The position numbers were made by a program, and so were the translations under genes. A stretch of 35,048 bases of DNA from an uncultured Chloroflexota bacterium. GTDB taxonomy: Bacteria; Chloroflexota; UBA11872; VXNJ01. The notes beneath the pieces are model-generated. The model saw only the letters and a list, made by a program, of their open reading frames with translations. It was not told the origin of the DNA and searched no databases. How positions within the stretch are numbered: the stretch's first letter is position 1; each line of letters begins with the position of its first letter. Location: contig CAYYTN010000001.1 in assembly GCA_964474495.1 (NCBI GenBank), positions 14,740 through 49,787 on the forward strand, written 5' to 3'. Below are positions 7,072-23,229 of the stretch, one piece after another.

Positions 7072-9834
7072 ATGATCTCACGGCCGATGCGCGCCCTCGG
7101 CCAAGCCCCGGCGTTACGCGGGCACGGTCCGTGGGTGGTTTTCGGGTTTGTGGTGGTCGCTGCGGTCTGGGTGAAGCTGATCACCATGCCGGGCGAGCTT
7201 CTGCAGCGTGATCTTGAGTACCCGCTCGTCTCCGACTACGTCCTGGATGATTTCTATCCAATGCTGGCTTCGGACGGACGGAGCGCGCTGGGTCATATGA
7301 GTCTTACGCCGGTGATGGGGTTGGTGGGGGTGCTGCTGGAAGGGATCGGCGGTACATCGGGCGCGATGATCCGCGGGCTCGTCGTCGGGCAGTCGCTGGC
7401 CGCTTTCGCATCGATGTATCTCCTGTTCCAGCTGGTGGCGGAGAGGGGCGCTACCCAGGTCTTACCGACCAGAGTGGGTGGGCTGGCAGCGGGGTTGTTC
7501 TACGCGCTGAACCCCTGGGCCATCGCGCGGGTGGAACACCTAGGCCTGTTGATCGGCTATTCCCTGCTGCCGCTGGTTTTGGGATTGGCGCTACTGGCAG
7601 TGCGACGGGGTTCGGCGCGGTTCGCCGTTGGGGCCTCGCTGGCGTTCTGGTTCACGGCGGCGAGTCCCCACTACCTGGTCTTCACGACTGCCATCCTGGC
7701 CGCACTCGCCCTCTACTACCTGATGGGTGCGAGGACCTGGGGCGCAGCCCGCCTGATGATTCGCCTCGGTGCGGTCGGGATGGCCACAATCGTTGGCCTG
7801 GTGATGTTTCTGGTACTGCCGACGCTGGCGTCATCCTGGTTGAGTGGAGGCCTGCCGGCCGAGATTGCCGCGGGTGCGGACGATCTGGCGATTCGGGATG
7901 GCGCGGCCTCCCGGTTGGAGATAATTACGTTGACGAGCAACGCGGTCTGGTCGGATGTGATGCGCCCCGCCGGGCAAGCCGGCTGGGCGTGGATGATGGT
8001 TGCCTTGCTACCGGCCGGAAGCCTGGTCTGGGTGTCCTTCTTCGGTAGACCTCGCGCCGGGGTTGGGATGCTGCTGCTGGCGCTCGCGGTGGTGGTGGTC
8101 ACGGTCGAGGTGTTGGTGGTCAGGGAAGCAGGATCGGGGGCAACGGGGTTTGTAGTTTCACGAATTCCCGGTGGACGCGCCCTGCGCGAGCCGGACAAGC
8201 TGTCGGGCCTGCTGGCGCTGGCGTTCGCCTGGGGCGTGGGAGGAGTTGTGGGGATGCTCGTGTGGTCGCTTACAGGCTCGGCACACAGGGCTGGGCAGAG
8301 GCTCGGGATTTCTGTGTTGTTGGTTGCGCTGGTGCTCGCGGCAACGGCGATGCTCACGCCAGCGATCCGCTATTTCCTTTGGACAGAGGGGGTTGCGAAC
8401 TGGCTGCCCCACTCCTGGCCGACCGGGTACGAGCGGCCGCTGGCGGCGTTGCGCGATGCGGAAGGGGCGACACGGACGGTAGTTTTCGAGAGAGATGAAC
8501 GCGTGCCCATCTGGGACGACACCAGGGTGCTGCGTCAGCCGGTATCGCGCTCCCTGGCCGGAGTGCCAACCGTGGGTTGGCGCCACGGCGGGAACAGCGT
8601 GTTCTTGAGCGGTCTCCTGCAACTGGAGGGCGCAGATCTGGTCCGCGCAATCCGACTGGCCGGAGCTGATCGTTTGCTGGTGGTGCACGATACAAGGGAA
8701 GGGGCCGAACTAAACGAGCGAGTGGCGAGGACGGGTGAGTTCGAGGTGCTGGTGGCGGATGAATACGTAACCCTATACAGCAGTGGGGAGGTGTTCGGCG
8801 GTTCGGGCTACGCCGCCGGCGGCTGGTGGCCGGTTTACGGTCTGAACGGCGCGGCGGCCGGAGCGTTCGGGGTAGAGCCGGCTCTGATGGTGATTGCCGA
8901 TGCCGGGGCATCGGGCTGCCCGGCGGAACTTGCGGCCCTGCCGATGATTGGCTCCACTCCCGTTTCGGGAGCCCTCCCGCCGTGCACGTTGCCGGATCGA
9001 CTGATCCGATTGCATCCCGAAACGGAAGAAGCCAACGAGTGGGAGGCGACCGGGGGATCGGCGGCGGAGCTGTCCCGTTGGTCCCAGGCGACAGGGCGGC
9101 AGGATCTAACGGCGCGGGAATATGACTACGGGTTGGGTTTCGCCTGGATCGAACCGGGACTCCCGGAAGGGCGGAACGCGATCTTCCCGGTGGGGCAGGT
9201 GGAGGTGGGCGCGCCGCTGTACCTGCGAGCGTTGGTTGGCGGGGCGGCGGCGGCATTGGAAGTGGAGGTGCTGGATTCTTCTGGTGCGACGCTGGCCAGG
9301 ACTGACGTTGCAGCGGATGGGGAGCCGCGGCTCGAATGGGTGCCGATCACGATCGTCGAGGGAGGGGGCTCGTTGCGGCTTCGGATTACGGCCGCCGAGG
9401 GCTTCGGTGCGGTGAACGCGGTGGCCCTGGGTAGCCGTATCTTCGGGCCGGCGATAGTGGAAACGGCTGCGGAACTGCCCACGGCCGTGCTGGTTCGGCG
9501 AGAGTCAAGAACACAACTGAAGGCCACGGTCGAGGGTTCGTCCGGGGCCTTTGCGCTGGTGGTAGCGGAAAACTACTCGCCCGTCTGGCGGGCGAGATAT
9601 CCGGGCGGAGAGGCATTGCCCTTCCCGGCTGGTTACGCACGAATGGGTTTTATGATCCCGGCTGCCGGCGATTTTGAAATAACGGTCGACTTCGTGCCTC
9701 AGGGTTGGCACGACGCGGGATTGATTGTTTCGGGAGTGACGTTGGCGGGCGCGGTTGCGTACCTGATTTGGCCGATGGCAGGGTGGGTGATTCAGATGGG
9801 GCGGCGGGCGAGGCAGACCACCGAAGTGCCGTAG
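7072..9834 (+). CDS. Giant GT-C fold membrane glycosyltransferase, divergent AftD/DUF3367-like paralog (920 aa)
   Basis: The ATG lies 4 nt after the carbamoyltransferase stop. The N-terminal ~430 aa are multi-TM, with QRDLEYPL in the first loop, FYALNPW and ALREPDKLSGLL. The C-terminal module is VAENYSPVWRA...GYARMGF...DFVPQGW plus a terminal TM helix, shared with the three larger paralogs. Confidence 0.7.
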   Translation: MISRPMRALGQAPALRGHGPWVVFGFVVVAAVWVKLITMPGELLQRDLEYPLVSDYVLDDFYPMLASDGRSALGHMSLTPVMGLVGVLLEGIGGTSGAMIRGLVVGQSLAAFASMYLLFQLVAERGATQVLPTRVGGLAAGLFYALNPWAIARVEHLGLLIGYSLLPLVLGLALLAVRRGSARFAVGASLAFWFTAASPHYLVFTTAILAALALYYLMGARTWGAARLMIRLGAVGMATIVGLVMFLVLPTLASSWLSGGLPAEIAAGADDLAIRDGAASRLEIITLTSNAVWSDVMRPAGQAGWAWMMVALLPAGSLVWVSFFGRPRAGVGMLLLALAVVVVTVEVLVVREAGSGATGFVVSRIPGGRALREPDKLSGLLALAFAWGVGGVVGMLVWSLTGSAHRAGQRLGISVLLVALVLAATAMLTPAIRYFLWTEGVANWLPHSWPTGYERPLAALRDAEGATRTVVFERDERVPIWDDTRVLRQPVSRSLAGVPTVGWRHGGNSVFLSGLLQLEGADLVRAIRLAGADRLLVVHDTREGAELNERVARTGEFEVLVADEYVTLYSSGEVFGGSGYAAGGWWPVYGLNGAAAGAFGVEPALMVIADAGASGCPAELAALPMIGSTPVSGALPPCTLPDRLIRLHPETEEANEWEATGGSAAELSRWSQATGRQDLTAREYDYGLGFAWIEPGLPEGRNAIFPVGQVEVGAPLYLRALVGGAAAALEVEVLDSSGATLARTDVAADGEPRLEWVPITIVEGGGSLRLRITAAEGFGAVNAVALGSRIFGPAIVETAAELPTAVLVRRESRTQLKATVEGSSGAFALVVAENYSPVWRARYPGGEALPFPAGYARMGFMIPAAGDFEITVDFVPQGWHDAGLIVSGVTLAGAVAYLIWPMAGWVIQMGRRARQTTEVP

Positions 9835-10595
9835 GGAACGTCCCAGCGCGCCACTACCGGTGCTTCGGCGGCGAAGATGGCGTACAGGATCGGGTTCAGC
9901 AGACCGGGCAGAAGCCGGTTTTCGGATCTTGCCGCCATACCGGTCAGACGCAGAACTCGCCGGGCGGCCAGGATGGGGAGTGCCAGCGCAATGTTCATGC
10001 ACGTTGATCGGACGACTTGAAGGCCGGAAGCCACCAGGCGCTCTTCGATCATGCTCCGGGAGTAGCGACGATGGTGGCCGGACACCTCGTCCTGCCAGCC
10101 CCACAGCGAGCGGAAGGCGGGGACCACGACGACCGCCAGTCCGCCGGGTTTCAGGACGCGGCAGATTTCGGCGGCGGCATCCGGATCGTCGGGAATATGC
10201 TCGAGGACATCAGTGGCCAGGACAGCGGCAAACGCCTGATCGCGAAACGGAACCGCGACGGCATCGGCTAGGGTCTCGGCGGAGTAGCCGGCTTCGCGAC
10301 TGAGAGCCAGCGCTTCGAAGGATGAATCGAGTGCGAACTGCGGACGGGCAAATTGCTCTAGCAGGTCCCGGTTGGTGCCGGGACCGCTGCCCAGATCGAG
10401 TATCGGGCCGGCGGGGATGGAATTCAGGTGGGGACGTAGCAAACTGCCCAGGACCGTGCGCCGGCCGCGGTACCACCAGTGGCGTGACTTGATTGCGTGC
10501 AGCTCGCCTACGAGGTCGGGGTGCATGTTCGGCTGTTCATCCATGTTTCGGAGATTGTGGGTTGAACCCGGGGCGTGACTGCCGCCCTCCATCAT
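9792..10595 (-). CDS. Class I SAM-dependent methyltransferase
   Basis: 267 aa, with HWWYRGRR, ILDLGSGPGTN (motif I), ATDVLEHIPDD and VLKPGGLAVVVVP. Several in-frame Met codons could serve as the start. The 3' end overlaps the 7072..9834 gene by 43 nt (convergent). Confidence 0.85.
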   Translation of the reverse strand: MMEGGSHAPGSTHNLRNMDEQPNMHPDLVGELHAIKSRHWWYRGRRTVLGSLLRPHLNSIPAGPILDLGSGPGTNRDLLEQFARPQFALDSSFEALALSREAGYSAETLADAVAVPFRDQAFAAVLATDVLEHIPDDPDAAAEICRVLKPGGLAVVVVPAFRSLWGWQDEVSGHHRRYSRSMIEERLVASGLQVVRSTCMNIALALPILAARRVLRLTGMAARSENRLLPGLLNPILYAIFAAEAPVVARWDVPYGTSVVCLARRPI

Positions 10596-10759
10596 GGAGA
10601 CGGCGCGCCTCTTTTGCCAGCGGCGGGAGGACCAGTTTCGGGAGAGGCCGATTGCCCGACCGTCCGCTGGTCAAGAATAGTTTCGCTGAACAGCTTTGCA
10701 CCGCCGGTTGTTCGTGGTGGTGACGACACTTCGGGCGGATGAGGTAGAGCGCGTAGCGG

Positions 10760-10765
10760 TAGAAT
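10760..10765 (+). promoter_or_regulatory. Candidate -10 box TAGAAT, 157 nt upstream of the GtrB/ArnC-like gene
   Basis: Exact TAGAAT (context GCGG-TAGAAT-CTCGC) in the 327-bp divergent intergenic region. It implies a long leader that contains the GC hairpin at 10783..10803. Confidence 0.3.
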
Positions 10766-10922
10766 CTCGCACTGATGGGAGCGTGGCGCCGACGCTGCGC
10801 CACTTGCACCAAACGGATGGCACGCGATTGATCACGATCCAGATTGATAGATCTCCCCGATCCCGCGTATGGGCGCGGACCGGGCGCCCCGTCCTGTTGC
10901 CCGGTCGAGGGATCGCGACCTA

Positions 10923-11921
10923 ATGATCGAGTTTTCGGTGGTAGTACCTCTTTACAACGAGGCCGGTAACGTTGCGCGGCTGGTTACCGAACTGGTGGAG
11001 TCGTTGTCCGGGCGGGACTTCGAGATAGTGCTGGTAGATGACGGTTCGGATGACGGCACCGTCGCTGAGCTGGCGAAGGTGGCCGGGGAGGAGCCTCGCG
11101 TTCGGGTCGTGTATCTAACTAGGAACTTCGGTCAAACGGCCGCCCTGGCGGCCGGTCTGGCCGACGCGACTGCCGAGACCATCGTCACGATGGATGGCGA
11201 TCTGCAGAATGATCCATCCGACATTCCGGGGCTTTTGGACAAATTGGACGAAGGCTTCGACGTGGTCAGTGGCTGGCGCCGGGAACGCACTGGCTCATTT
11301 GTGTCGAGGCGTCTGCCGTCACGGATCGCGAATTGGATGATCAGCCTCGTTGTGGGGGGAAGGGTGCACGACAACGGCTGCGGACTCAAGGCATACCGGC
11401 GCGAACTTTTGGAACAGCTCCAGCTCTACGGAGAAGGGCACCGCATTTTGATGGCCCAGGCGGTGGAACTCGGTGTGAGGATCGCGGAAGTGGAGGTGGC
11501 GGATCGGGCGCGAAGTTACGGGGCCTCGAAGTATGGAATCTCACGGACCTACAAGGTCTTGCTGGATCTGCTTGCGTTGAAGTTCTTGTCTTCCTACGCG
11601 TTCAAACCGATACGGGTTTTCGGCGGAATCGGATTCATTTTCCTGGCGGCATCGCTTCTCCTGGGAGCGGGCCTCATAGTCTGGCGACTGTTGGGCGAAG
11701 GATTCATCATCCAGACGCCGCTGTTGTTGGTGGCCGCGGTTCTTTTTATTGTGGGAGTCTTCCTCGTCTTGCAGGGATTGCTCGCGGAATTGACGGTTCG
11801 CCTGTACCACGAGGTCCACGGTGGGCCTATCTACCGAACGAGGGTTCCTGTCCTGAGGTCGGCGGAGGATCAATCCGGCGAGAACAAGCCGGATCACGAT
11901 CCTTCCGACGGCGAACGATGA
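10923..11921 (+). CDS. Polyprenyl-phosphate glycosyltransferase, GT2 (GtrB/ArnC/DPM1-like)
   Basis: Motifs FSVVVPLYNE, EIVLVDDGSDDGT, LTRNFGQTAALAAG, VTMDGDLQNDP, DVVSGWRRER and RIANWMI, followed by two C-terminal TM helices. This is the ArnC/GtrB layout. ATG 10923 is preceded by GAGGGA (10907..10912). The track start at 10869 only adds an Arg-rich extension. Confidence 0.9.
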   Translation: MIEFSVVVPLYNEAGNVARLVTELVESLSGRDFEIVLVDDGSDDGTVAELAKVAGEEPRVRVVYLTRNFGQTAALAAGLADATAETIVTMDGDLQNDPSDIPGLLDKLDEGFDVVSGWRRERTGSFVSRRLPSRIANWMISLVVGGRVHDNGCGLKAYRRELLEQLQLYGEGHRILMAQAVELGVRIAEVEVADRARSYGASKYGISRTYKVLLDLLALKFLSSYAFKPIRVFGGIGFIFLAASLLLGAGLIVWRLLGEGFIIQTPLLLVAAVLFIVGVFLVLQGLLAELTVRLYHEVHGGPIYRTRVPVLRSAEDQSGENKPDHDPSDGER

Positions 11922-14900
11922 TGAGGGCCAGGGCGGTGACGGCGGCGGTCATCGCCGAAACAACAACCGCGGCCGAGAACCATCCTTGGGGTTGAAAGTT
12001 TATTTCGACCAGTCCGTTGTCCGACGGCTCAAACAGGTAAGCGTTGGCGTAGTCGTCTACCTGGAAGTGCGGCAGTGGCCAGCCACCGGACGAAGCTACC
12101 CACTGCTCGTGAAATGACTCATTGAAGACCAGGACGCACGGCGAGTCGCAGTTCACATCGACGCTATAGCCAGTTGGGGATGCCCGGAGGACCGTGACGG
12201 CACCGGATTTAGGTGGGGACTGGCGAACCGAATCTGGGATGAGTTCGAGGAAGTAGTCCTCCTGGCCGAGTTGCGGGATCGTGATGGAGGAGGTCCCGGT
12301 GAGATGTAAGGTCGTGCCGAAAAGAGAGACCGAGCCTTCCTGAGGGTCCATGAAAGTGGCGCGACCGTCTACCGCAATGATCAGAGGATTGGGGCGGCCG
12401 CCGGGCCAGTCGAGATCGCCGAAGGGGCGGAAGGAAACTTGTAGCCGGTACTCCCCGGGTGGAGTCGCGGGACGCCACTCAAAGATCGCGCGAGAAAGGC
12501 CTGGATCACCCCGAACCGCGAAGGCCGCGTTCTGACCTCCGCGAAGGTCGGAAGGATGGGGGGAATAGAACGAGATCACGTTCTCGCCCGGATGTATCCG
12601 AAGTGCCGGCACGCGGATGGCGGTGGGCGTATCTGGTGGAACCTCGGTGACGCTCAGCAGCTCGGAATTCAGGTAGACAAAAAAGGAACGAGCCCGGGCA
12701 TAGGAGAATACGCTAAGGGAAAGCTCGGCCAGCACTGGGGTATTGGACTCGTTAGATGCGAGATAGTGTTCGCCATTGTTCAAGGTGAACCACCGCCAGG
12801 TGTGCCCGGGGGTTAGATCCTCGAACTGCCCCCAGGTTGTTGGGTCGCCGTAGCTGATGGATAGGCCGGGGGCCGCAGCCCGGACGGATCCTTCGAGATC
12901 GGCCGTATCGGCAAACACAACCGACTGCAAATCGGAACGACCGGAACTGATGCGGCCGTCTGACGCTTGCCCGGTCAGCAACGATTCGGCCGCCGCCGGC
13001 AGATCTTCGGAAGCCACGAAGACGGTGTTGGGATTCGCGTCGGGAGATGCAAGGAGCGCGACGCGGCGCGCATCAAGATTTGCCACGGCGGTGATTTCGG
13101 AAGCGATCGTGAAACGCGGCCTTGGTGTCTCGACCTCATAGATGTCCCATTTACCGAAGGTTGCGACCCGGATAACTCCGGGAGCATTTGCAAGAATCCG
13201 CTCGACGTTCTCGGGGGAGTCCGTTACGCGATAGCCGGAACCCTGGTAGAAGTCGTAGCGTACGTCGCGCTCATGTACCAGGTAGCGGACGCCGAGTCGG
13301 GATAGCAACGCGGGGGCAGCTTCGGATAGCTCGTCCAACAGATCGGCCTCAATGCGTTCAACCAGACGTTCGCTGGCGTTAGGCGCCCCCTGTGAGATCT
13401 TGGTGTTCTCGGTGGATCGTTTGAAGATCACGGGGTGTGTGGTCAGGGTCTGGAGGAACGATCCGAAGCCGGTATAGCCCCACTCACTGAGCCAGGGGGA
13501 ATCGCCGGGAATGGTCATGATTCGGAAATCGCCAGGCTGCCGGTTTATCCAGTCGGCGGCTTCATATACGTAGACGGGCGGTCCAGCGTGATTGGGGTTC
13601 AGGAACGTCCGCTCACCGGCAGTCGGGAAGGCAAGCCCGAAGGTGAGGGGGTAGGCGTAGAGGGGGCCGACGGCAAAGTACAGGGCGAAGGCGCAGAACA
13701 CCGCTCCCCGGGCGGCAGCCCGGTTTGACCAGATTCCGACAACACGGACGAGAGCGAATTCCGCGAATCGAATCAAGGTCGGAGCCGACAGGCCGATCAG
13801 GACCGCATAGCCGATGACGGTGAGAAAGGAGAACTTGAACCACGGACTCCTGATGATCCAGAAGAATGGGAGGTTGTCGACCGCCCAGGCATACGCCGGG
13901 CCAAGGGGGGAATTCAGGCCGGCGCCGGCGATGAGGCCGATCCCGGTCAACAGAACGAAATAGCCCTTGTATTTGCCGCGTCCCCGTATTGCCCCGAGGA
14001 GCACCAGCGCAAAGGTCGTCAGACCCAGAAGCACCAGCAACATGCTGCCGGCGAAGCGGGCTGCATAGGTGCGGTAGGGGTCGACAAGGCCCTGGTACCA
14101 CGTCCAGTCACTGACAAAGCGGATGTTGTTGCCGATCGATGTGTAGAGGCTCTGCCCTTCGAGAAACTGGCGACTGGTCCGCTGGAATTCGGGGAAGCTA
14201 TCGGAGGCTTGAGCGGCTTTAATGCCGGCAATTTCCGGGACGATCCAGAACGCGTGTAGAAGGGGGAGCACAATCGACAAGGAGAGCCCGGCCATCAGCA
14301 CTCTTCCCAACGCTGGCCATCGTCGCCGGGCGGCCGCAGACAGCGCCACGGTCAGGAACAGAAGCGGTACCGGAACAATCGCCAATATCATCTCGCTGAC
14401 GTTGTTGCCGATTGGCGCGGCGGCCAGGGACATGAGAGCAGAAATCAAGACTGCCCGGAGATAGCCGGTCCCGCTGGAGAAGACCCGCACCCAGAGCCCT
14501 ATCAAGAAGGGCATCACGGCCACGGCCGCGATCATCGGCTCCTTGTAGCCAAGCCAGTTGGAGATCAACCAGAGATTGAACATGTAGAACAACACGGCCG
14601 CCATCCGAACGAGGCGCCTTTGGTCGCCCTGGTACACACCCACCATCAGGTAGTACATGCTTAAGCCCGGGATTGTGAACCAGACGACGAACTGGGCCAT
14701 CTGGGCCCCAACGATCCCGACGCCGAGGCCCTGTAAGGCGGCGGCGATGAACAGCGTTGGGAACCGGCCCGAGTCGAGAATCTTCTGGGCTCCAGTTCCG
14801 AGTTGATCGTTCCAGACGTACCAGAACTGGGTGAATTCGTCCCAGTTGGGTGGGACCATGAGGTCCTCGGAGTTGAGCAATTGCCCTTCCCGGAACCAGA

Positions 14901-15009
14901 GAAGCGGCGCGAGTCCAAGTACCAGGATCAAGACGAAGTCGCCGATCGGCGCCCGACGGTTGATCCGCCCGAACCAGCCGGCCAGGGCGTGCGTCACGAA
15001 TGGATCCAA
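11827..15009 (-). CDS. Giant GT-C fold membrane glycosyltransferase, AftD/DUF3367-like (1060 aa)
   Basis: Motifs NSEDLMVP (first loop), FYMFN, FFWIIRSPWFKFSF, IRFVSDWTWYQGLVDPYRTYA, a large non-membrane region, FNESFHEQWVA...DDYANAY...FQPQGW and a terminal TM. The track start is TTG with no clear SD, so the start is uncertain by a few codons. Confidence 0.8.
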   Translation of the reverse strand: MDPFVTHALAGWFGRINRRAPIGDFVLILVLGLAPLLWFREGQLLNSEDLMVPPNWDEFTQFWYVWNDQLGTGAQKILDSGRFPTLFIAAALQGLGVGIVGAQMAQFVVWFTIPGLSMYYLMVGVYQGDQRRLVRMAAVLFYMFNLWLISNWLGYKEPMIAAVAVMPFLIGLWVRVFSSGTGYLRAVLISALMSLAAAPIGNNVSEMILAIVPVPLLFLTVALSAAARRRWPALGRVLMAGLSLSIVLPLLHAFWIVPEIAGIKAAQASDSFPEFQRTSRQFLEGQSLYTSIGNNIRFVSDWTWYQGLVDPYRTYAARFAGSMLLVLLGLTTFALVLLGAIRGRGKYKGYFVLLTGIGLIAGAGLNSPLGPAYAWAVDNLPFFWIIRSPWFKFSFLTVIGYAVLIGLSAPTLIRFAEFALVRVVGIWSNRAAARGAVFCAFALYFAVGPLYAYPLTFGLAFPTAGERTFLNPNHAGPPVYVYEAADWINRQPGDFRIMTIPGDSPWLSEWGYTGFGSFLQTLTTHPVIFKRSTENTKISQGAPNASERLVERIEADLLDELSEAAPALLSRLGVRYLVHERDVRYDFYQGSGYRVTDSPENVERILANAPGVIRVATFGKWDIYEVETPRPRFTIASEITAVANLDARRVALLASPDANPNTVFVASEDLPAAAESLLTGQASDGRISSGRSDLQSVVFADTADLEGSVRAAAPGLSISYGDPTTWGQFEDLTPGHTWRWFTLNNGEHYLASNESNTPVLAELSLSVFSYARARSFFVYLNSELLSVTEVPPDTPTAIRVPALRIHPGENVISFYSPHPSDLRGGQNAAFAVRGDPGLSRAIFEWRPATPPGEYRLQVSFRPFGDLDWPGGRPNPLIIAVDGRATFMDPQEGSVSLFGTTLHLTGTSSITIPQLGQEDYFLELIPDSVRQSPPKSGAVTVLRASPTGYSVDVNCDSPCVLVFNESFHEQWVASSGGWPLPHFQVDDYANAYLFEPSDNGLVEINFQPQGWFSAAVVVSAMTAAVTALALIIVRRRKDRDPACSRRIDPPPTSGQEPSFGR

Positions 15010-15051
15010 TCGGGTTGTCGGCTCGATCGCGGGGAGGCTGCGGCGGGCGCG

Positions 15052-18000
15052 CTAATGAGGGTCTCCCTCTGATCTGGAAATGCGATCTCGTATGGCCATT
15101 CCAGCGACCGCAAGAACCGCGAGGGCGAGGGCAGTGACCGAGACGATCGCACCGCCCACGAAGAGTCGTTGCGGGCCAAAGGACAGGCTGATCGCCTGCT
15201 CCCCGGCTGGGATGATGTACGCATTGGCGAAGCCGTTCACGCGATATTGGTCCAGCGGGGCCGAGGTTGAAGTGGCGACCCAACGGGGGTCGAACGATTC
15301 TCCGAAGATCATGATGGCCGGGTTGTCGGCCGAGATTTCAAGGTCGTATGAAGTGGGGCTCTCCTCGGCGGGAAGGGCGTGACCAGGGGCTGGGCCGGCC
15401 CCCGGGCCTCCGCCCGAAATGACGCGGATGGCGTAGTTCTCGGAGCCGGCCTGTTGCACGGTGATGGTGTGACCGCCGGGTTCGAGGGCCACGGTGGTGA
15501 TGAATGTAGGCTCGCCCAGCAGGTCCTGCCGCTCAAAATTCAGGGCCACATCGTCCAGGCTGGCGGTCACCGCGGCAGGAAACGCATCCAGACCATAAGG
15601 GCGTATCTCTAGTCGGTGGGCCCCGCCGCGTGGAGCGTCGAACGTGAGGTCGAAAGCAAGCCGGCCGGAGAGGAGGCTGCGGTCCAGGACGGCGAAGTTG
15701 CGATTGACGTTGCCGACCGCGGTAGGAGGGTGGGCGGTATAGAGCATCAGATAGCTTTCGCCGGGAGGGATCGTGACATCTTTGACCAGGACGTCGGTTT
15801 CGCGGTCGGCGGGCAGTCGTTGGATGAGCAGGGGGACGTTGGAAGGGGTCGGGCCGTCGTAGGGAAAAACATAGAAATCCCGGGCTTGCCCCAGCGATGT
15901 CACGGTCAGCATCAGATTGGTGCGGACCGGGCTGGCGGACTCGTTTACCACGATCAGCGCGCGCTTTCCATCTGGCTCGAGCCAGTGCCAGCCACTTCCA
16001 TCGTCGGCAGTCTCGACCACCGCAAGGTGTTCGCCGAACTGAAACTGGACGGGATCGTCGGCCGATGGATCGAGCGGCGGGCGGGCGACCACATCGGGAT
16101 TCTCCGTTGAGGCCAGGAAGACCACCCGCAGTCCGGGGTCGAGGAGTTTTAGTTGCACTCGATCGACGAGGCTTGCATAGATGGTCTCCGGCACCAGGAC
16201 CACTTCGCCAGTGGCAGAGTCGAGCGTGCCGGTGAGGAGATGAGATCCCGCGTCGAGCAATTGGGTGCCAAGTGGTATCCAGAATGGTGTCGCGGAGGAC
16301 GGGGTCGAACTTAGATCGAGGGGGCGACCGTCCACGGCGAGGTCACCCGAAGGAAAGCGGTTACGGTTCGGGGATCGCAACCAGACACGATACTCGGCGG
16401 TTTCACCAACGGTAAATGCCACCGGAATGCCGCTGCGCGCTACCGGATGGCGATACTCAGCCGGAATAAGGTCGAGGGCGAGCTCCTCGGGCCCGCTGGC
16501 GAAGAACAGGATCTCCCGGAGCAACGGTGACTCCATCGCTCGGGAGAGACTTTCGGGGGTCTGCTGTTCCGAGAACAGCAGCGCCGGAGCGGTAAGCAGA
16601 TCCATCCCGGCCATGGTCGGGATGGCCTCGACTCCGCCGGCGACGAGGGACAGCCCCGAAGCCAGATAGAACTTCGGCAGAGGGTTATCGACGGAGTACA
16701 CGTCCCAATCTCCGAAAGTGGCCTCCGGATGGATACCCAGCTGCTTCTCTAGCCGGAGACGCACCCAGTCGGCGGAGTCGACATCGCCGGAGTACAACCA
16801 ATATTTGATACCCGTTTCGTGGTTGAAATAGCGGACGCTCATCAGTTTCAGGATTTCGTCAGCCCGTCGGGTGGTTGCCCGGTAGATCGCTTCGTAGGCG
16901 ATGTCGTTCAACATCGCGTTGGTGGCTGAAACGAGGGAACCGGAGACCGTTTGAAACGGGTAGACAATCGGCGTGACACCAAGCTGCGTGAGTGCCGGAG
17001 AGCCTCCGACAAAACCGTTCTGGTCGGCCCAGATGGTCGTCTCGGGCAGCGCCGCGACTCGCCCGCCGTGAGCGTTCTCGTCGAGCCAGCGGGATGCCTC
17101 TGCAACATAGTCCGGGATTTGCATCCGATTGGGAGGCAGATGCTCACGGACCGCGGCGGGCGGGAACATCTGACCGGTGGTGACGGGGTAGGCATAGATG
17201 AGGTTGGTGGCGACGAGAGTGAAGGCAACAAAGGCCGAGGTGGGGCTGCCAAGTTGCCTGCCGATTCGCGACTGCGCCGAAGCCTGTCGCAGCCATCCGG
17301 TGATGTTCGCGGCGCCAAGCCCACCGAGAACCGCAAAACCGAGACTGGTGACCAGGGCGAACTTGAACCAGGGGCTGCGGATGATCCAGAACAGGGGCGC
17401 ATTGCGCACCAGCCAGAGATAGATCCGATCCATCGGCGGATGGGTGCCCATGCTTAATAGGAGGGCAAAGAGGGTGACGGTGCCGAAGAACAGGCGGAGC
17501 CGTCTCCCGCGCCCGGCGAGTCCAGCTAGAGCCAGAACCGGGGCCACCCAGGAGAGGATCGCCAGGGTCGCGGAATTTTCGTAGGTGTCGGCATAGGGGC
17601 GGTACGGCTCGTTCCAACCCTGGTACCAGGTCCAATCACCCTGAAAACGCAGCACTTTGGCGAAGGACGTGTTTGCGGACAAACCGCCTAGCCAGTTTGA
17701 TGCGAGCTCGCTGGAAGTCGTGAGTTCGCCGGTCGTGGTTGCCTGGATTTGCCCGACGAAGGGAATGATCCAGAATGCGTTGATCAAGATCGAAACGGTC
17801 ACCAGGATGCCTACCGTGCGGAATACCGGGACCAGGCGGGAACTCAGCCGGCCATCGGTTGAAAACAGCAGATACGCCAGCGCGAACGCGGCAATCGCGG
17901 CGACGAAGACCAGCACGAGTGGGGGGTTCACGCCCACCCCCGAGGACCACAGGGCAACCGGTGCCGTGTAGAGGGCCAGGCGGAGGGACGATATGCGCCC

Positions 18001-18537
18001 TTTGAAACCCAGATAGAGCAGCGTGAGCAGCAACGGCAGGGCGGTCTGAGCGGTGAGCACGCCGATGTTGAATCCGCGCCAGGCGTGTTCGATGAAGAGA
18101 TTGAACATGTAGAAGCTTGCCCCGACCACAGCGGCGGTCTGCCATTGACCACGGGACAGCCGGGAGGTGAACAGCGCTCGTACAAGCACGTACACGCCCA
18201 GGCCGGACAGGGTCATCCAGAGAATCATGATCAGGCGCTGGGTGACGGCCGGGCTGAATCCAACTGCCTGCAAACCGGCCTGCTGAGCGAACGTGAGGAT
18301 GGCGGTGTGAGCGACGTTATACGGGGTGCCGGTGTTGAGAACGGGGTTCCAGGAATGCAGCGTGAGGAAGAATTGCTGAGGCGTACGCGGCAGGGCCAGA
18401 TCCTCGGATATCAGGATGGTGTCCCAAGGAGCCCAGAGTGCAGGGATGAGCCCCAGGGCAACGATCAGGGCCGGAACCGCGTAGGTAGATCGATGGAAGG
18501 TCATGAGGACGCCGCCGAGTCGGGCGGAATCTCGCAT
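15052..18537 (-). CDS. Giant GT-C fold membrane glycosyltransferase, AftD/DUF3367-like (~1161 aa)
   Basis: Motifs ISEDLALP, FYMFN, LFWIIRSPWFKFAL, LRFQGDWTWYQGWNEPYRPYA, FGESFDPRWVA...NGFANAY and a terminal TM. The track start at 18627 would overlap the upstream gene by 83 nt. ATG 18537 (7 nt after that gene's stop) or ATG 18504 is more plausible. Confidence 0.8.
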   Translation of the reverse strand: MRDSARLGGVLMTFHRSTYAVPALIVALGLIPALWAPWDTILISEDLALPRTPQQFFLTLHSWNPVLNTGTPYNVAHTAILTFAQQAGLQAVGFSPAVTQRLIMILWMTLSGLGVYVLVRALFTSRLSRGQWQTAAVVGASFYMFNLFIEHAWRGFNIGVLTAQTALPLLLTLLYLGFKGRISSLRLALYTAPVALWSSGVGVNPPLVLVFVAAIAAFALAYLLFSTDGRLSSRLVPVFRTVGILVTVSILINAFWIIPFVGQIQATTTGELTTSSELASNWLGGLSANTSFAKVLRFQGDWTWYQGWNEPYRPYADTYENSATLAILSWVAPVLALAGLAGRGRRLRLFFGTVTLFALLLSMGTHPPMDRIYLWLVRNAPLFWIIRSPWFKFALVTSLGFAVLGGLGAANITGWLRQASAQSRIGRQLGSPTSAFVAFTLVATNLIYAYPVTTGQMFPPAAVREHLPPNRMQIPDYVAEASRWLDENAHGGRVAALPETTIWADQNGFVGGSPALTQLGVTPIVYPFQTVSGSLVSATNAMLNDIAYEAIYRATTRRADEILKLMSVRYFNHETGIKYWLYSGDVDSADWVRLRLEKQLGIHPEATFGDWDVYSVDNPLPKFYLASGLSLVAGGVEAIPTMAGMDLLTAPALLFSEQQTPESLSRAMESPLLREILFFASGPEELALDLIPAEYRHPVARSGIPVAFTVGETAEYRVWLRSPNRNRFPSGDLAVDGRPLDLSSTPSSATPFWIPLGTQLLDAGSHLLTGTLDSATGEVVLVPETIYASLVDRVQLKLLDPGLRVVFLASTENPDVVARPPLDPSADDPVQFQFGEHLAVVETADDGSGWHWLEPDGKRALIVVNESASPVRTNLMLTVTSLGQARDFYVFPYDGPTPSNVPLLIQRLPADRETDVLVKDVTIPPGESYLMLYTAHPPTAVGNVNRNFAVLDRSLLSGRLAFDLTFDAPRGGAHRLEIRPYGLDAFPAAVTASLDDVALNFERQDLLGEPTFITTVALEPGGHTITVQQAGSENYAIRVISGGGPGAGPAPGHALPAEESPTSYDLEISADNPAIMIFGESFDPRWVATSTSAPLDQYRVNGFANAYIIPAGEQAISLSFGPQRLFVGGAIVSVTALALAVLAVAGMAIRDRISRSEGDPH

Positions 18538-18544
18538 TTTCAGG

Positions 18545-19642
18545 CTACGCCTCGGAACGCAGTGAGGCGGCCATGCCGAGGAGCAGGGCCAGCCCGAGCG
18601 AGATCTCGGCGAGTGCCCCGGAAACATTGCCCGCGTCGTCCATCTTCAGCAGCGCAAAGCCGATGGACAGCCCGAGGAGGGTCAGAGTGGCGGCCAGGAG
18701 CGGTGGCCACAGCACCGCGGGGAGGAGCATCTTTCTGAGGGGGACCTTCCGCGTTCCCTGGTTGTGAACCCAGCGATATGCCAGCCAGATCATCAGGAGC
18801 GCGGTGTCCAGGAGCCATGCGTAGGCCAAGGCCGTATTCCAATAGGTGGCGATGAGGGTGGACTGCAAGCCCTCGCCGAACTGCTCGGCGAAGGTCGCGG
18901 CAGCGGCCGTCAAGATGAGGGCCATCATGACCGGCACGAGGGCGATGAATGGAAGCGGGGAAATGACGGTGGCTCGGATATGCCGCAGGGTCAATGCACC
19001 GAGTGCTATCCCGCCGGCGCTGGCGACGGCAATCGCCAGGACGTAGAGCGCCGATCGGATCGGGTCGACCCCGATGGTGTCGCGCATAAGCGACCAGGCG
19101 CTCACGGAGGCGATTGGCGAGACCAGCGCTCGGAGATCGGGAAGGGTATCGGCGCCGTTGATTGTCAGCTGGTTTGGCGGCAGGTCGTAGAGGTGTTCGC
19201 TGCCTAGGACAACAAGGCCGCCTGGAGAATAGGCGGCCACTTCCATCTCGTACTCAAGGTACGGCCCATCGTCGGCCGGGATTGGTGGCAACGGGATCGC
19301 GGTCACCACCTGGTGGTTTGGGCCGTTGGTACGCTGAACGGACTCTCGAAGGATCTCACGATCACCCCCCGACCGCCGAATCCGCAGGTTGACGTAGGCT
19401 AGCCGCCGAGAATCAGAAGGTCGCACGAGGGCTGCAAAACCGGATATATCCCCAATTTGCGTTTCGATACGCTGGCTCACGCTGCCACCAGGCTCCAGGT
19501 ACACCACTTCTTGATAGGCCCGCTCGATCTCCCAAAGTTGTACGTTGCGACGAAGGGTGAGTTGACTTACAACTGCGATTACGGCGAGAAGAGCTAAACC
19601 GGCCCAAGCTGCCAGGGTGAATACTCGACGGCGCCCGGTCAA
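18545..19642 (-). CDS. Polytopic membrane protein of unrecognised family (paralog B of three), embedded between two giant GT-C genes
   Basis: 365 aa. TM anchor FTLAAWAGLALLAVIAVV. The domain carries VYLEPGGSVSQRI, DISGFAALV, VNLRIRRSGG and PIPADDGPYLEYEMEV, followed by ~5-6 hydrophobic helices. The TTG start overlaps the upstream TGA (TTGA). Confidence 0.7.
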   Translation of the reverse strand: MTGRRRVFTLAAWAGLALLAVIAVVSQLTLRRNVQLWEIERAYQEVVYLEPGGSVSQRIETQIGDISGFAALVRPSDSRRLAYVNLRIRRSGGDREILRESVQRTNGPNHQVVTAIPLPPIPADDGPYLEYEMEVAAYSPGGLVVLGSEHLYDLPPNQLTINGADTLPDLRALVSPIASVSAWSLMRDTIGVDPIRSALYVLAIAVASAGGIALGALTLRHIRATVISPLPFIALVPVMMALILTAAAATFAEQFGEGLQSTLIATYWNTALAYAWLLDTALLMIWLAYRWVHNQGTRKVPLRKMLLPAVLWPPLLAATLTLLGLSIGFALLKMDDAGNVSGALAEISLGLALLLGMAASLRSEA

Positions 19643-22600
19643 GACGCGGTGTCTTCTGGGGGACGGGTCCTACGGGCCACCCGGTCGCGTGCAAGCCTTA
19701 TCAGTAATAGCGATACCAGGGCGGCGATGCTAGCGGCGGAGATATTTCTGGTGGCGTCGGCGAGAGGCTGTAGGTTGAATTTGAACTCGATTTCGTACTC
19801 TCCGACTTGGTCGACAAAGAAGCCATTGGCAAACCCATTCACTTTCAAATGAGGTTCAACTGGGACCCCATTGATAGTGGCTTCCCAACGGTCGTCGAAC
19901 AGTTCGTTGAGCATGATCATGGTCGGACGCTCAGTTCGCACGGACGCGCGGATAAGGCTGCTGGAAATGGATTCATACTGGATGACCAGATCCTGGTGGT
20001 CGGTGATTTCCGATCGGATGGGCACCAGTGTCACGGGAATGGATGCACCCAGTTTCTGGTCGATGATCAGTGTGTGTGGCCCGGCCGAGAGATTCACGGT
20101 GGTCGTCGCGATCCGAAACTTATCGTCCCCGGTGAGGACAGGGAGCAAGTCCTCCCCGTCGATAGTCAGAGCGTTCAGCAGATCGTGATGGTCAGGGCTG
20201 GCAGACGACTGGTACGTCAGATGGACCCCAAGGCGATAGTTGCCGCCCTCTGCAACATGGAAGGTTCGCTCGCGTTTGATCGTCCCGATCACGACCGGCA
20301 TTTCGTATTCGAAACTGGCAAAGCTCCCGTCCGACAGAAGCGCGTCTCCCTCAGGGGAGTAGAGATTCACAAAGGTTGTCCCAGGTTCAATGTCGATTGA
20401 GAGGACTAATACTTCCCGAGGTATCGAAGGCTGAAGGAGGAAGATCGAATGAAAGGCACCTCCCACGTTAATCCAAAGGGACCTGGGAATGGTCCCAATC
20501 GGGGTCGGCCGAAGAACCATGGCGATTGTTTGTGCAGATCCTGATTGGTTGGAAATCTCTAGGTGGGGTGAGTATTTCTGCACCGCTCGAAGGCGCCGTG
20601 TGCTTAATCCCTCGACTCCTGTCTCGAGCTCGTCCCAGTTATCTTTGAGCGCGATCGTTACCCGCATCTCGACCGGGAGATCGACAATATCTTGGGGAGT
20701 GATGCGGCCGAAAAGGTAGATGTAACTTGGGAATTGTTGTCCAGGGGTGAGACCGAGCTCAGAGCTGCCGGGAAACGCAACACTAGACTCGCTGTCCATT
20801 AGCATCTTATTGTCCAGAGCGATCCGATCGGCTGCGCGAACAAGGACGAGCCGAAGCCCGTCAGGAGCCGGCGAAGGGAATCCTAATTTGAGTGTGCTGC
20901 TGCCCTGAACCCCTTCAAAACTACCCCAGTAGACCCAGGAATCGGGAAGCTCGAATACATCGGCGAACGGGTCGAGGGTTAGCGGTTTGCCGTCGATGGA
21001 CGGAGCCCTAGGGCCTTTGGGGGTGGGAAACACATCTTGCCGAAGGAGTTCACGGTTGACAAAGTCGAACCCGGAAAGGCTAGAAGAGTTCGCCTCCGTG
21101 ACTAGCTCCCAAAGCTCGTACGTTCCGTCGACCGATATCTCCATGTCCACGGAGTTGGACCCCGGCGGAATAGTCAGGCTGCTCTCATTGCTCTTGAACG
21201 CAAGAAACTCGTTGAAACCATTCCCGAGGCGCAGGATGCTCGCCGGAGGTATATCTTTAGCGAACTGTGCGGTAGTGGAATCTTCCCCAGAAGGGTCGAT
21301 CATGACGATGGCAGGGTCAGGATCAGCCAGGCTGTTCGTAAGCGGACTAAGAGACTGGAGCCCGGTCAGCGTGAGAACTGTAAGCGGCGAACCCCAGACG
21401 AGGTCTCGAACATCGGGGACAGCGAAAAAAATCAGCGGACCAAAACGGGCCACCTCATCGATCCCTTGCCACTCCAGGACCCTATCAATGTACTCGTCTA
21501 AATTGTCCGCAAACTCCGGTCGGACGACATCGCGCTGGTGAAGGAAATAGCCGATGCCAGACCTCCCGGCGACCCGGGCAATGGGAACAGTCCGAGTGCC
21601 CAGCGTCTGGGCATACAGGTAGGCTTGCATCTCAGACGGTTCGACCAGATTGATGAAGGGCTCGGTAGTTAGCTCGCCGACCGGTGGGATGTAGCCGGTA
21701 TAGCCCCAATCGGTCGTAAGCCGTAGCGCAGGAGGGAACGAGAGCACGCGGTAGTCGCCCGGGTGTTCATTCATCCAGGCCGCTGCCTCGACAAGATAAT
21801 CTGGCATCTGAACTTGAAGGGTGCTCAGGGGAGAATCTAGGGGACGCTGAATGAAGAAGCGCCCCCGGACGATGGGCATTGTGTACAGGAGATAGAGCAC
21901 CGCCAGGAGCAAAGGGAAGCTCGCTGACAGGGTCCGGGCGGTCCGCCCATAGCGGAGACCGAAGCGCGAGCTGGCCAGGAACTGGCCTATGGATGCCGTG
22001 GTCGCGGCGACGAAGAGACCGGCCAATGGCGCAAAGCCAAGGATTGTCAGGGAAGTGGCTTTGTACCAGGGGCTCCGCAGGACCCAGAAAAGAGGCACAT
22101 TTTTCCACAGCAAAGCGAAGATCGGACCGAACGGACCGTTGATGCCACTGCCCAAGACTAGCCCGAGGAATGCCACGAAGCCGAAATACAGACATTTGCG
22201 ATCTCTCTGGACGGCGAGACCGCCAAGGGCAACCAGTGGAAGCAGGAAACTCCCGACGATAAGTAGCGGATTCTGAAAGTACCCCGCCGCGTAGGGAACA
22301 TACGGGACGCCTTTGAAGCCGCCGTACCAGACCCAGGCGCCCTGCATCCGCCAAACATTGAGCGGATTGGTATAGCTGGAGAGGTGAGTGAGTTGGGCAA
22401 GTCCAACGTCCTTCGTGCGACCGATAAAATTTTGTCCCGGTCCGCCGGTAATGAGTCCGACGGACTGCGGTACGAGCCAGTAGGCGTTGACTGCCACGAT
22501 AAGAACCAGGGCGATTGACGCCAGCATGAGCATTCGACGTGCTTGCAGGGCCCGGCCGGTCGCGAATCGATGGATCATATACATGATCATGTAGAGGGGA

Positions 22601-23229
22601 ACGGGGATCATCGCGATCAGGGCCATGGGCGGGTTGGCTCCGACACCAGATCCGACCACGGTAATCAAAGCTATAAGGGCCGCACTAGTCAGCAATCGAC
22701 CATTCCGCGTGAATGAAATGGTCACTGCCAGGGAAAGCGGTAGTGCGACTAATGCGCTGAGGTTGGCAATGTTGACGCCCTGCCAGAGTGGTTCCTGATA
22801 GAAATTGAACATGTAAACGAGGCTGGCGGCTACCCACGCTATTCGGGAAGTGGTCAGGTACTGCATTAGGACGTACATGGAGAGCCCCACAGCCGACAAC
22901 CAAAGTGCGAACTGGAGCCGCTGGGCAAGCTCGATGGATGCACCGACGGCACGGAACAGGGCGGGCCAGAAGAGGAAGAACACCGCAGGCAGACGATCAT
23001 CGGGGCTTGAACCGAAACCGACGCGGGATTGCCAGGTGCTAAAAAATTCTGCCCATTGATCGAGAGTCATAGGGAGGATGAAATCTTCGGCCTTGGCCAC
23101 GTAGCCTGACTTTACCCAGAACAGCGGCGCGAGCCCGGCTAGCAGAACGACAGCCAGGGCCGGGGACGGCAGAAAACGCTGTCCGAGGGAGATCCAGCGG
23201 CGTTGGGGCACTACCGATGGCCTAGTCAT
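19639..23229 (-). CDS. Giant GT-C fold membrane glycosyltransferase, AftD/DUF3367-like (1196 aa)
   Basis: Motifs KAEDFILP, VYMFN, LFWVLRSPWYKATSL, WRMQGAWVWYGGFKGVPYVPYA, LNELFDDRWEA...NGFANGF and a terminal TM. The ATG overlaps the upstream carbamoyltransferase stop by 8 nt. G+C is visibly lower than in its paralogs. Confidence 0.8.
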   Translation of the reverse strand: MTRPSVVPQRRWISLGQRFLPSPALAVVLLAGLAPLFWVKSGYVAKAEDFILPMTLDQWAEFFSTWQSRVGFGSSPDDRLPAVFFLFWPALFRAVGASIELAQRLQFALWLSAVGLSMYVLMQYLTTSRIAWVAASLVYMFNFYQEPLWQGVNIANLSALVALPLSLAVTISFTRNGRLLTSAALIALITVVGSGVGANPPMALIAMIPVPLYMIMYMIHRFATGRALQARRMLMLASIALVLIVAVNAYWLVPQSVGLITGGPGQNFIGRTKDVGLAQLTHLSSYTNPLNVWRMQGAWVWYGGFKGVPYVPYAAGYFQNPLLIVGSFLLPLVALGGLAVQRDRKCLYFGFVAFLGLVLGSGINGPFGPIFALLWKNVPLFWVLRSPWYKATSLTILGFAPLAGLFVAATTASIGQFLASSRFGLRYGRTARTLSASFPLLLAVLYLLYTMPIVRGRFFIQRPLDSPLSTLQVQMPDYLVEAAAWMNEHPGDYRVLSFPPALRLTTDWGYTGYIPPVGELTTEPFINLVEPSEMQAYLYAQTLGTRTVPIARVAGRSGIGYFLHQRDVVRPEFADNLDEYIDRVLEWQGIDEVARFGPLIFFAVPDVRDLVWGSPLTVLTLTGLQSLSPLTNSLADPDPAIVMIDPSGEDSTTAQFAKDIPPASILRLGNGFNEFLAFKSNESSLTIPPGSNSVDMEISVDGTYELWELVTEANSSSLSGFDFVNRELLRQDVFPTPKGPRAPSIDGKPLTLDPFADVFELPDSWVYWGSFEGVQGSSTLKLGFPSPAPDGLRLVLVRAADRIALDNKMLMDSESSVAFPGSSELGLTPGQQFPSYIYLFGRITPQDIVDLPVEMRVTIALKDNWDELETGVEGLSTRRLRAVQKYSPHLEISNQSGSAQTIAMVLRPTPIGTIPRSLWINVGGAFHSIFLLQPSIPREVLVLSIDIEPGTTFVNLYSPEGDALLSDGSFASFEYEMPVVIGTIKRERTFHVAEGGNYRLGVHLTYQSSASPDHHDLLNALTIDGEDLLPVLTGDDKFRIATTTVNLSAGPHTLIIDQKLGASIPVTLVPIRSEITDHQDLVIQYESISSSLIRASVRTERPTMIMLNELFDDRWEATINGVPVEPHLKVNGFANGFFVDQVGEYEIEFKFNLQPLADATRNISAASIAALVSLLLIRLARDRVARRTRPPEDTAS

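Follow-up and report, generated by a model that had tools for sequence, protein, structure and literature searches.

The 35,048-bp stretch of contig CAYYTN010000001.1 analysed here (the window; ~61% G+C), from an uncultured marine Chloroflexota bacterium, encodes four very large membrane proteins, referred to here as A to D. All of them have the GT-C fold, and their closest solved or characterised relative is AftD (Rv0236c in M. tuberculosis, MAB AftD in M. abscessus; PF11847; PDB 6W98, 6WBX and 6WBY), the arabinofuranosyltransferase of mycobacterial arabinogalactan and lipoarabinomannan. They fall within a large sister branch of the actinobacterial AftD that is still uncharacterised. The remainder of the window is a glycan locus, and the product of the cluster as a whole is probably a surface sugar polymer, undescribed and heavily decorated, that is built outside the cell membrane. 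This type of locus is conserved and fairly widespread in uncultured bacteria and metagenomes, and is not unique to this contig. The explanation that we favour, and consider rather likely, is that A to D would be four non-redundant GT-C glycosyltransferases that use polyprenyl-phosphate-sugar donors, each adding a different linkage to one surface glycan outside the membrane. It starts from homology, fold, architecture and conserved synteny, from which we infer the action at the outer face, the linkage roles and the polymer-holding ectodomains.

Architecture and mutual similarity of the four proteins

The gene for A (A920; 7072-9834, + strand) encodes a divergent paralogue of 920 aa and closes an operon with the order MT-GT2, Epim1, CmT1 and A. 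The other three lie on the opposite strand: B (B1060; 11827-15009, - strand) has 1060 aa, C (C1161; 15052-18537, - strand) has 1161 aa from its likely start and D (D1196; 19639-23229, - strand) has 1196 aa. The longest open reading frame (ORF) of C covers 15052-18627 and would give 1191 aa; the internal methionine at 18537 is preferred because it matches the length of the orthologues (1134-1164 aa) and leaves no overlap with the upstream gene. A hydropathy scan of all four, together with AlphaFold models of A and B, reveals a common layout, in which a polytopic N-terminal domain that extends to residue ~450-460 (approximately residues 20-460 in B) is followed by a beta-rich ectodomain of 450-650 aa and a single C-terminal transmembrane (TM) helix.

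In all-versus-all BLASTP comparisons, B and C are 31-32% identical over ~620 aa and 31% identical over a further ~340 aa (262 bits), while D presents 26-30% identity to both of them (28% and 222 bits with B; 26% over 1225 aligned columns and 256 bits with C). The similarity of A to B is weak in these searches, being limited to two short segments with an E-value of ~1e-4. When the profile of the A family is aligned with that of the B/C/D family by hhalign, the two match with a probability of 99.8% and an E-value of 5e-30 over 841 collinear columns. On these comparisons, B, C and D are full-length paralogues, and A is a distant yet certain homologue of them.

The four-way alignment contains a series of ordered motifs. 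These include an acidic motif in the first loop, (S/A)ED.x.P or RDLEYP; a second motif, FYMFN or FYALN; and a third one, FW(I/V)(I/L)RSPW(F/Y)K or LREPDKL. The motif RxxGxWxWYxG..PYxxYA is present in B, C and D only, and the C-terminal module NE(S/L)F..W.A ... (F/Y)AN ... F.PQ is found in the alignment of all four. An earlier note, made by inspection of the letters alone, had placed the four ORFs, described their shared N-domain, ectodomain and C-terminal TM helix and quoted their motifs; the ORF coordinates, the hydropathy scan and the models bear out its description, and every motif that it quoted appears in the alignment. The all-versus-all comparison that it proposed gives 26-32% identity over the full length for B, C and D, with A joined to them by the hhalign match.

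Relationship to AftD and the GT-C fold

At the level of family models, B matches Pfam PF11847 (GT-C_AftD) with 45.2 bits against a cut-off of 26, and D falls just below it (25.2 bits), although orthologues of D carry a precomputed PF11847 match. Neither C nor A obtains a Pfam match as a single protein. Likewise, phmmer searches of the PDB with the single sequences of A and B find no match, and AftD is reached only with the family profile of B, C and D. This profile, built from the three proteins and 12 relatives, retrieves the M. abscessus AftD chains 6W98/6WBX with an E-value of 6.5e-17, through three collinear segments that correspond to the membrane domain, the first soluble domain and the C-terminal module. 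The profile of the A family alone reaches no PDB chain.

Structure prediction leads to the same relative. The AlphaFold model of B has a mean predicted local distance difference test (pLDDT) value of 81 and a predicted template modelling score (pTM) of 0.77, and its top Foldseek match is AftD (E 1e-22, template modelling score 0.49 over the whole chain), followed by STT3, ArnT and AftA. The model of A920 is weak (pLDDT 59.5); its top match is again AftD (6W98, E 1e-10), followed by STT3 and PglB. For C and D, the GT-C fold follows from their 26-32% full-length identity to B. The Pfam, family-profile and Foldseek results thus establish both the GT-C fold and the relationship to AftD, instead of leaving them as mere inference. 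The earlier note had assigned the four proteins to the GT-C/AftD-like class and had anticipated AftD-family models in a Pfam/NCBIfam scan, as well as a Foldseek resemblance to the AftD structure; the assignment agrees with the PF11847 scores of B and D, with the profile match and with the position of AftD at the top of the lists for both models. The same note had named a YfhO-type teichoic-acid glycosylation locus as an outcome that would speak against it. PF09586 (YfhO) has no match in the full-length proteins, nor in their C-terminal modules at E-values up to 1, and a kinship of the C-terminal module to YfhO was rejected; faint C-terminal YfhO matches occur only in two neighbouring proteins of other loci.

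Since protein oligosaccharyltransferases are the next-best structural matches after AftD (STT3 and PglB), A to D might instead glycosylate proteins, for instance the S-layer protein of a monoderm Chloroflexota without peptidoglycan. Cultured SAR202/Dehalococcoidia have no peptidoglycan genes and present an S-layer-like coat (PMC10444878), and two glycosyltransferases of the window, GT2_b and MT-GT2, resemble the archaeal S-layer glycosylation enzyme AglJ. Nevertheless, AftD is far closer than the oligosaccharyltransferases (E 1e-22 versus 2e-6), and its similarity runs through the ectodomain and the C-terminal module. No conserved WWDxG-type motif is found at the equivalent place, where B has WGYTG, without an acidic residue, and the window contains no S-layer or sequon-rich gene. 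We therefore consider protein glycosylation quite improbable.

Differences from AftD and conserved residues

From the perspective of their orthology, A to D are members of a wider AftD-like GT-C branch and not orthologues of AftD, given that the C-terminal helix bundle is absent and that E251 and D474 have no conserved equivalent. Like AftD, the four proteins show collinear homology across the polytopic GT-C domain, the first soluble domain and the C-terminal beta-module with its TM helix, and they share the large beta-sandwich ectodomain, which resembles a carbohydrate-binding module (CBM), the acidic residue of loop 1 and the motif lysine that corresponds to K361. Unlike AftD, they are 200-450 residues shorter (identity to AftD 11-14%) and end in one C-terminal TM helix each, instead of the multi-helix TM region of AftD, in which a four-helix bundle binds acyl carrier protein (bioRxiv 10.1101/2019.12.22.885152). 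AftD is also encoded by one gene in Actinobacteria, in contrast with four tandem paralogues in a Chloroflexota host, and the neighbours differ, here comprising ArnC-like and ArnA-like enzymes, carbamoyltransferases and methyltransferases, with no decaprenyl-phospho-arabinose genes in the window. Family scans detect no UbiA-type DPPR synthase and no DprE1/DprE2 among the ORFs of the window, in agreement with the earlier note.

In M. abscessus AftD, the essential residues are K39, D41, E251, K361 and D474 (bioRxiv 10.1101/2019.12.22.885152). A MAFFT alignment of the recovered AftD N-terminal sequences with the family places K361 on a lysine that all four paralogues and their relatives share without exception, within an R/K motif whose spacing is R-x4-K in B, C and D and R-x3-K in A, as in AftD. 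D41 lies two residues away from the conserved loop-1 aspartate of the family, in an ambiguous part of the alignment; this aspartate (Asp49 in B numbering) is identical in A to D and nearly invariant across 15 family members. Among the orthologues of A, down to 26-30% identity, R372, E373, D375, K376 and W481 are invariant, and D47 and D482 nearly so.

These residues bear on whether one or more paralogues, especially A920, could be inactive scaffolds or glycan-binding or export components derived from GT-C enzymes. A920 has neither the WxWYxG..PY loop nor the RSPWFK form of the third motif nor a Pfam match, and E251 and D474 of AftD are missing in all four proteins. On the other hand, the strictly conserved polar residues of the A family (R372, E373, D375 and K376, with D47 and D482 nearly so) are retained, the R-x3-K spacing of A equals that of AftD and each paralogue has been under long-term purifying selection as a separate orthogroup. 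A loss of activity is, on this evidence, very improbable.

Conservation of the locus and size of the family

The closest genomic relatives are all uncultured Chloroflexota metagenome-assembled genomes (MAGs), two of them closed chromosomes. The contig names of several relatives derive from ocean samples, and a SAR202-type lineage is plausible. The block D-H365-C-B, in which H365 is a smaller membrane protein described below, and the ArnC-like GT2 that abuts B are in 1:1 orthology in at least eight Chloroflexota assemblies. Two units recur among these relatives, namely CmT2-D-H365-C-B with GT2_b convergent on B, and MT_a-A-CmT1. For every one of the four proteins, the Chloroflexota assemblies contain a separate best-matching orthologue, with identities of 30-85%. 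Within flanks of ±10 kb, the closed-chromosome MAGs display part of the block: D, H365, C and B in one of them (locus L007), and B only in the other (L009).

A tree of the family, which the earlier note had called for, resolves a separate orthogroup for each of A to D (neighbour-joining). The four orthogroups branch congruently, which indicates that the duplications are old and the copies not redundant. Nested among the B, C and D groups are proteins of a Nitrospinaceae MAG, of an Omnitrophica MAG and of one unassigned contig, while the actinobacterial AftD stands on a long separate branch. An origin of the paralogues by assembly artefact or collapsed repeat is ruled out, because the same four orthogroups appear in independent assemblies. 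Beyond Chloroflexota, subsets of the companion genes (F548, Epim2, carbamoyltransferase, methyltransferases and the ArnC-like GT2) are located beside AftD-like genes in Nitrospinaceae, Omnitrophica and unassigned contigs, without all of them being present in every locus.

With regard to the size of the family, a word-index search retrieved 35 relatives of B, and an exhaustive profile search retrieved 27,170 representative clusters at E ≤ 1e-3 and 4,105 at E ≤ 1e-30. AftD itself scores only ~64 bits against the profile of the exhaustive search, which means that thousands of clusters are closer to the A-D type than AftD is. The ten strong relatives that were looked up have metagenomic sources, one of them coming also from an NCBI assembly. 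AftD homologues have been reported only within Actinobacteria (bioRxiv 10.1101/2019.12.22.885152). A search of the literature on AftD/DUF3367 outside Actinobacteria, on GT-C enzymes with carbamoyltransferases and on arabinofuranosyltransferases in Chloroflexota or Nitrospinota found no description of such a system.

Among known systems, the embC-embA-embB operon of mycobacteria follows the same idea, with three tandem GT-C arabinosyltransferase paralogues of ~1,100 aa. Both have tandem giant GT-C paralogues with CBM-type ectodomains, and in the Emb proteins each paralogue has a separate linkage or acceptor role and the polymer is built outside the membrane from a polyprenyl-phosphate pentose (PMC11127046). 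The Emb proteins belong to a different GT-C family, as no Pfam Emb-domain match is found here and the Foldseek scores of A920 against Emb are only 7.6e-3 to 3.8e-2; donors and taxon differ as well. The earlier note had called such an accumulation of GT-C genes exceptional, which overstates the case in view of the recurrence of the layout in many assemblies, the thousands of members of the subfamily and the embC-embA-embB precedent.

A proposed supply of donor sugars

The gene that converges on B encodes GT2_b (10869-11921, + strand), a glycosyltransferase that phmmer matches over its full length to ArnC in the PDB (9bhc, E 7e-45), followed by GtrB (5ekp, 1.5e-33) and DPMS (8e-21). Its score against the NCBIfam ArnC model is 171 bits, with an equivalog cut-off of 529, and the hydropathy scan shows two C-terminal TM helices. 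GT2_b would therefore be a synthase of polyprenyl-phosphate sugars of the ArnC/GtrB type, ArnC-like without being an ArnC equivalog. Its adjacency to B is kept in those Chloroflexota loci whose flanks reach it. In the window, the 3' ends of B (-) and GT2_b (+) overlap convergently by 95 nt (11827-11921), and the tail of B inside this overlap is poorly conserved and modelled with low confidence.

An ArnC/GtrB-type synthase is also what would be expected if A to D acted as decorators in the manner of the three-component Gtr systems (GtrB-like synthase, flippase and GT-C), each adding one kind of branch sugar as a side chain to a backbone made elsewhere. Family scans detect no polymerase, initiating transferase or exporter in the window, and post-polymerisation glycosylation by CBM-bearing GT-C enzymes is documented; indeed, a polyprenyl-phosphate sugar synthase, a flippase and a GT-C with a CBM are the logic shared with the Gtr-type/GT136 systems (PMC11127046). 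However, the known Gtr-type GT-Cs are far smaller, usually single, serotype-variable and ArnT-like, and they decorate O-antigens, whereas here four AftD-like enzymes of ~1,000 residues are fixed in an operon, their order and 1:1 orthology being maintained across deep lineages. No small flippase turned up in the window, and AftD, the nearest relative, elongates or branches a polymer that is built outside the membrane (bioRxiv 10.1101/2019.12.22.885152). Side-chain decoration is accordingly considered unlikely.

A second candidate for the donor route, Epim2 (27462-28439, - strand), belongs to the UDP-glucuronate decarboxylase family (like UXS or the C-terminal domain of ArnA), with PDB matches to UXS1 (4lk3, 1e-48) and ArnA (2bll, 3.5e-45) and a score of 205 bits against the NCBIfam model PRK11908 (cut-off 294). 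Next to it lies the gene of a GNAT N-acyltransferase identified by Pfam (26263-27423, - strand). In three related loci, the orthologue of this protein is fused to ArnA-N/Fmt-like Formyl_trans_N/C domains, with the GNAT part last (L007, 29-1879; L010, 1-1845; L012, 2185-4260); those of L007 and L012 have in addition a sub-threshold SCP2 match. The formyltransferase part is absent from the versions of the window and of L008. Its variable presence suggests a lineage-specific switching between N-formyl and N-acetyl chemistry. A DegT aminotransferase is encoded inside the cluster in six related loci (L006, L008, L010, L014, L037 and L040), adjoining CmT1 in the Chloroflexota loci L006, L008 and L010. 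The wider cassette would thus cover all the cytoplasmic steps of an Arn-like route, these being UDP-glucuronic acid decarboxylation, transamination, N-acylation and transfer to polyprenyl phosphate.

The Arn pathway itself (ArnA, ArnB, ArnC, ArnD, ArnE/F and ArnT) modifies lipid A with 4-amino-4-deoxy-L-arabinose (L-Ara4N). The likenesses are that GT2_b is nearest to ArnC over its full length, that Epim2 resembles the decarboxylase domain of ArnA and that the clusters of relatives hold ArnA-N-like formyltransferase domains and DegT (ArnB-class) aminotransferases. By contrast, the window has no ArnB, ArnD or ArnE/F and no recognisable ArnT (no PMT_2/ArnT or EmrE-like match), both GT2_b and Epim2 remain under the NCBIfam equivalog cut-offs, and the likely terminal transferases are the AftD-like enzymes and F548 instead of ArnT. 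If the host is monoderm, as Chloroflexota are generally reported to be (PMC10444878), lipid A cannot be the acceptor. The donor sugars, which the earlier note had regarded as unknown, are not entirely so, as the window encodes an ArnC-like synthase, an ArnA-C-like decarboxylase and a GNAT.

The H365 family and the F548-Epim2 module

Three further membrane proteins, H365 (18545-19642, - strand), E445 (728-2065, - strand) and I271 (30035-30850, + strand), constitute a second paralogous family of the window, as indicated by BLASTP (I271 versus E445, E 1e-5) and by a profile hidden Markov model (HMM) of the H365 family, against which I271 scores 212 bits, the underlying alignment including I271 itself. 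They are composed of an N-terminal TM helix, a beta-rich ectodomain of ~170 aa and three to five further hydrophobic (TM) segments, and have no match in Pfam, NCBIfam or the PDB. H365 is located between D and C in every Chloroflexota locus examined, its first 4 nt overlapping the end of D. The gene of I271 always diverges from that of F548. In a related Chloroflexota MAG (locus L002), a protein of 1281 aa (14061-17906, - strand) combines a GT-C-like membrane domain, an inserted E445-like domain (residues 435-652) and an AftD-like C-terminal module, and represents the fifth AftD-like gene there. Such a combination in one protein links the E445/H365 family to the GT-C enzymes in function.

F548 (28436-30082, - strand) is a polytopic membrane protein with nine hydrophobic segments. 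It has no match in Pfam, NCBIfam or PDB profiles, its hhalign comparison with the AftD-like profile is insignificant and no kinship to ArnT is detectable. The earlier note had counted two further GT-C genes in the window besides the four; these could not be confirmed, as F548 has no detectable GT-C similarity and E445 is a different kind of membrane protein. A metagenome scan with the F548 profile found 59 related loci. Of the 47 loci in which F548 has a match, 33 carry an Epim2-type decarboxylase gene directly after that of F548, as do nearly all the loci long enough to display the flank. The next gene after the pair encodes DegT (L037 and L040), a formyltransferase (L017, L020, L041 and L047) or a GNAT; more generally, the F548-Epim2 pair (loci L015-L047) is often accompanied by a DegT, formyltransferase or AsnB-like gene. 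F548 and Epim2 may therefore form a conserved module of their own, possibly with an ArnT-like or flippase function.

Other genes of the window

On the + strand, the genes are arranged in the order MT-GT2, Epim1, CmT1 and A. MT-GT2 (2542-4113) is a fusion of an S-adenosylmethionine (SAM) methyltransferase with a DPM1/AglJ-like GT2, according to Pfam and NCBIfam; it has no TM helix by hydropathy, and its GT2 half gives weak PDB matches to ArnC and DPMS. Epim1 (4176-5246) is a short-chain dehydrogenase/reductase similar to GDP-L-fucose synthase (NCBIfam NF047922, 285 bits versus a cut-off of 500). CmT1 (5400-7067), which ends 4 nt upstream of A, is a NodU/CmcH-type carbamoyltransferase with the Pfam domains Carbam_trans_N and Carbam_trans_C, and its orthologues (50-89% identity) adjoin AftD-like genes in several phyla. 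MT_a (9792-10595, - strand), a class I SAM methyltransferase identified by Pfam, is kept in related loci.

On the - strand, the order is CmT2, D, H365, C and B, with a gap of 42 nt between C and B. The overlaps and short gaps on both strands speak for operon coupling of these genes. CmT2 (23222-25138), the second carbamoyltransferase (Carbam_trans_N and Carbam_trans_C), overlaps the start of D by 8 nt with its end and is placed upstream of D in relatives too. MT_c (25238-26296, + strand) is another class I SAM methyltransferase (Pfam), adjoining D or the GNAT gene in relatives. Beyond F548 and I271, Pfam and NCBIfam identify a B12-binding radical SAM enzyme (30920-32560, - strand), likely a C- or P-type methyltransferase. 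G447 (32735-34078, - strand) is a 12-TM protein by hydropathy and a candidate Wzx/MOP-type flippase; it has no direct Pfam match and is 22% identical to a Polysacc_synt (PF01943) protein in L003. A Leloir-type GT2 glycosyltransferase (GT2_d; 34065-35021, - strand; Pfam and NCBIfam) occupies the edge of the window. In close relatives (L018, L019, L021, L022, L024, L025 and L027), an AsnB-like amidotransferase gene lies just past GT2_d and G447, so the cluster probably runs beyond the right edge of the window (35021-35048), and the part past this edge may include the amidation of a uronic acid.

At the opposite end, nucleotides 1-727 have no convincing coding assignment, and an ORF at 183-659 (+ strand; 158 aa), R/Q/H/D-rich, of low complexity and without a family match, was judged spurious. 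GC skew is positive over the whole window, its cumulative curve climbing monotonically whatever the gene strand, and the G+C content is ~57-58% over gene D (19-23 kb) as opposed to 60-66% elsewhere. Within the window, a promoter and terminator scan found nothing exceeding the shuffled expectation, and no Rfam families or tRNAs were detected.

A proposed assembly route and its significance

The best reading of the product is a methylated and carbamoylated glycan, assembled outside the cytoplasm in the style of arabinan from lipid-linked pentose-type donors. Synthesis would start from nucleotide sugars tailored by Epim2 and the GNAT, perhaps a pentose or a 4-acylamino-4-deoxypentose of the Ara4N type, as the DegT and formyltransferase genes of the relatives suggest, with Epim1 supplying a second sugar. 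For the decoration of the sugars, the locus would rely on its two carbamoyltransferases, on three to four SAM methyltransferases and on the B12-radical-SAM enzyme, carbamoylation and methylation taking place in the cytoplasm. At the cytoplasmic face, GT2_b would make the lipid-linked monosaccharide donors for B, C and D, and MT-GT2 might make the one for A. The Leloir-type GT2s would build a primer, for which G447 may be the flippase. At the outer face of the cytoplasmic membrane, each of A to D would form a different linkage, elongating or branching one surface glycan, while the beta-sandwich ectodomains would hold the growing polymer, as Emb and Aft enzymes do with mycobacterial arabinan. 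H365 is probably an accessory subunit of the C and D enzymes.

Several points weigh against this route. The tree is a neighbour-joining one without support values, and the model of A920 is of low confidence. E251 and D474/E475 of AftD have no conserved counterpart in A to D in the MAFFT alignment, and with two of the five residues essential in AftD absent (E251 and D474), the catalytic details may differ. The window has no aminotransferase, initiating phosphoglycosyltransferase, small ArnE/GtrA-type flippase or identifiable acceptor gene; a formyltransferase is likewise absent from it and present in orthologous clusters. In the absence of the aminotransferase and the formyltransferase, the donor may be a plain pentose, to which the match of Epim2 to UDP-xylose synthase as well as to ArnA also points, or the missing enzyme may be encoded elsewhere. 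Moreover, the rank of the oligosaccharyltransferases just after AftD makes a protein acceptor possible as well.

A more far-reaching version, which we regard as rather unlikely, would have an Arn-like lipid-linked (amino)pentose pathway feed the D-H-C-B/A enzymes to make a pentose-rich wall polymer of a hitherto unknown kind, bearing carbamoyl and methyl groups. Such a polymer would be a Chloroflexota counterpart of mycobacterial arabinan and a main structural layer of the envelope in deep-ocean monoderm Chloroflexota that possibly have no peptidoglycan, versions of its machinery having been exchanged with Nitrospinota and Omnitrophota.

The locus leads to a large and as yet uncharacterised branch of giant GT-C enzymes, and places this branch in a conserved and testable genetic context, with an ArnC-like synthase for the donors, a decarboxylase, carbamoyltransferases and methyltransferases. 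Should its product be one of the major polymers in the envelope of abundant marine Chloroflexota, it would be relevant to the construction of these poorly understood cells, and to the question of which refractory, methylated or carbamoylated sugars they release into the deep-ocean carbon pool.

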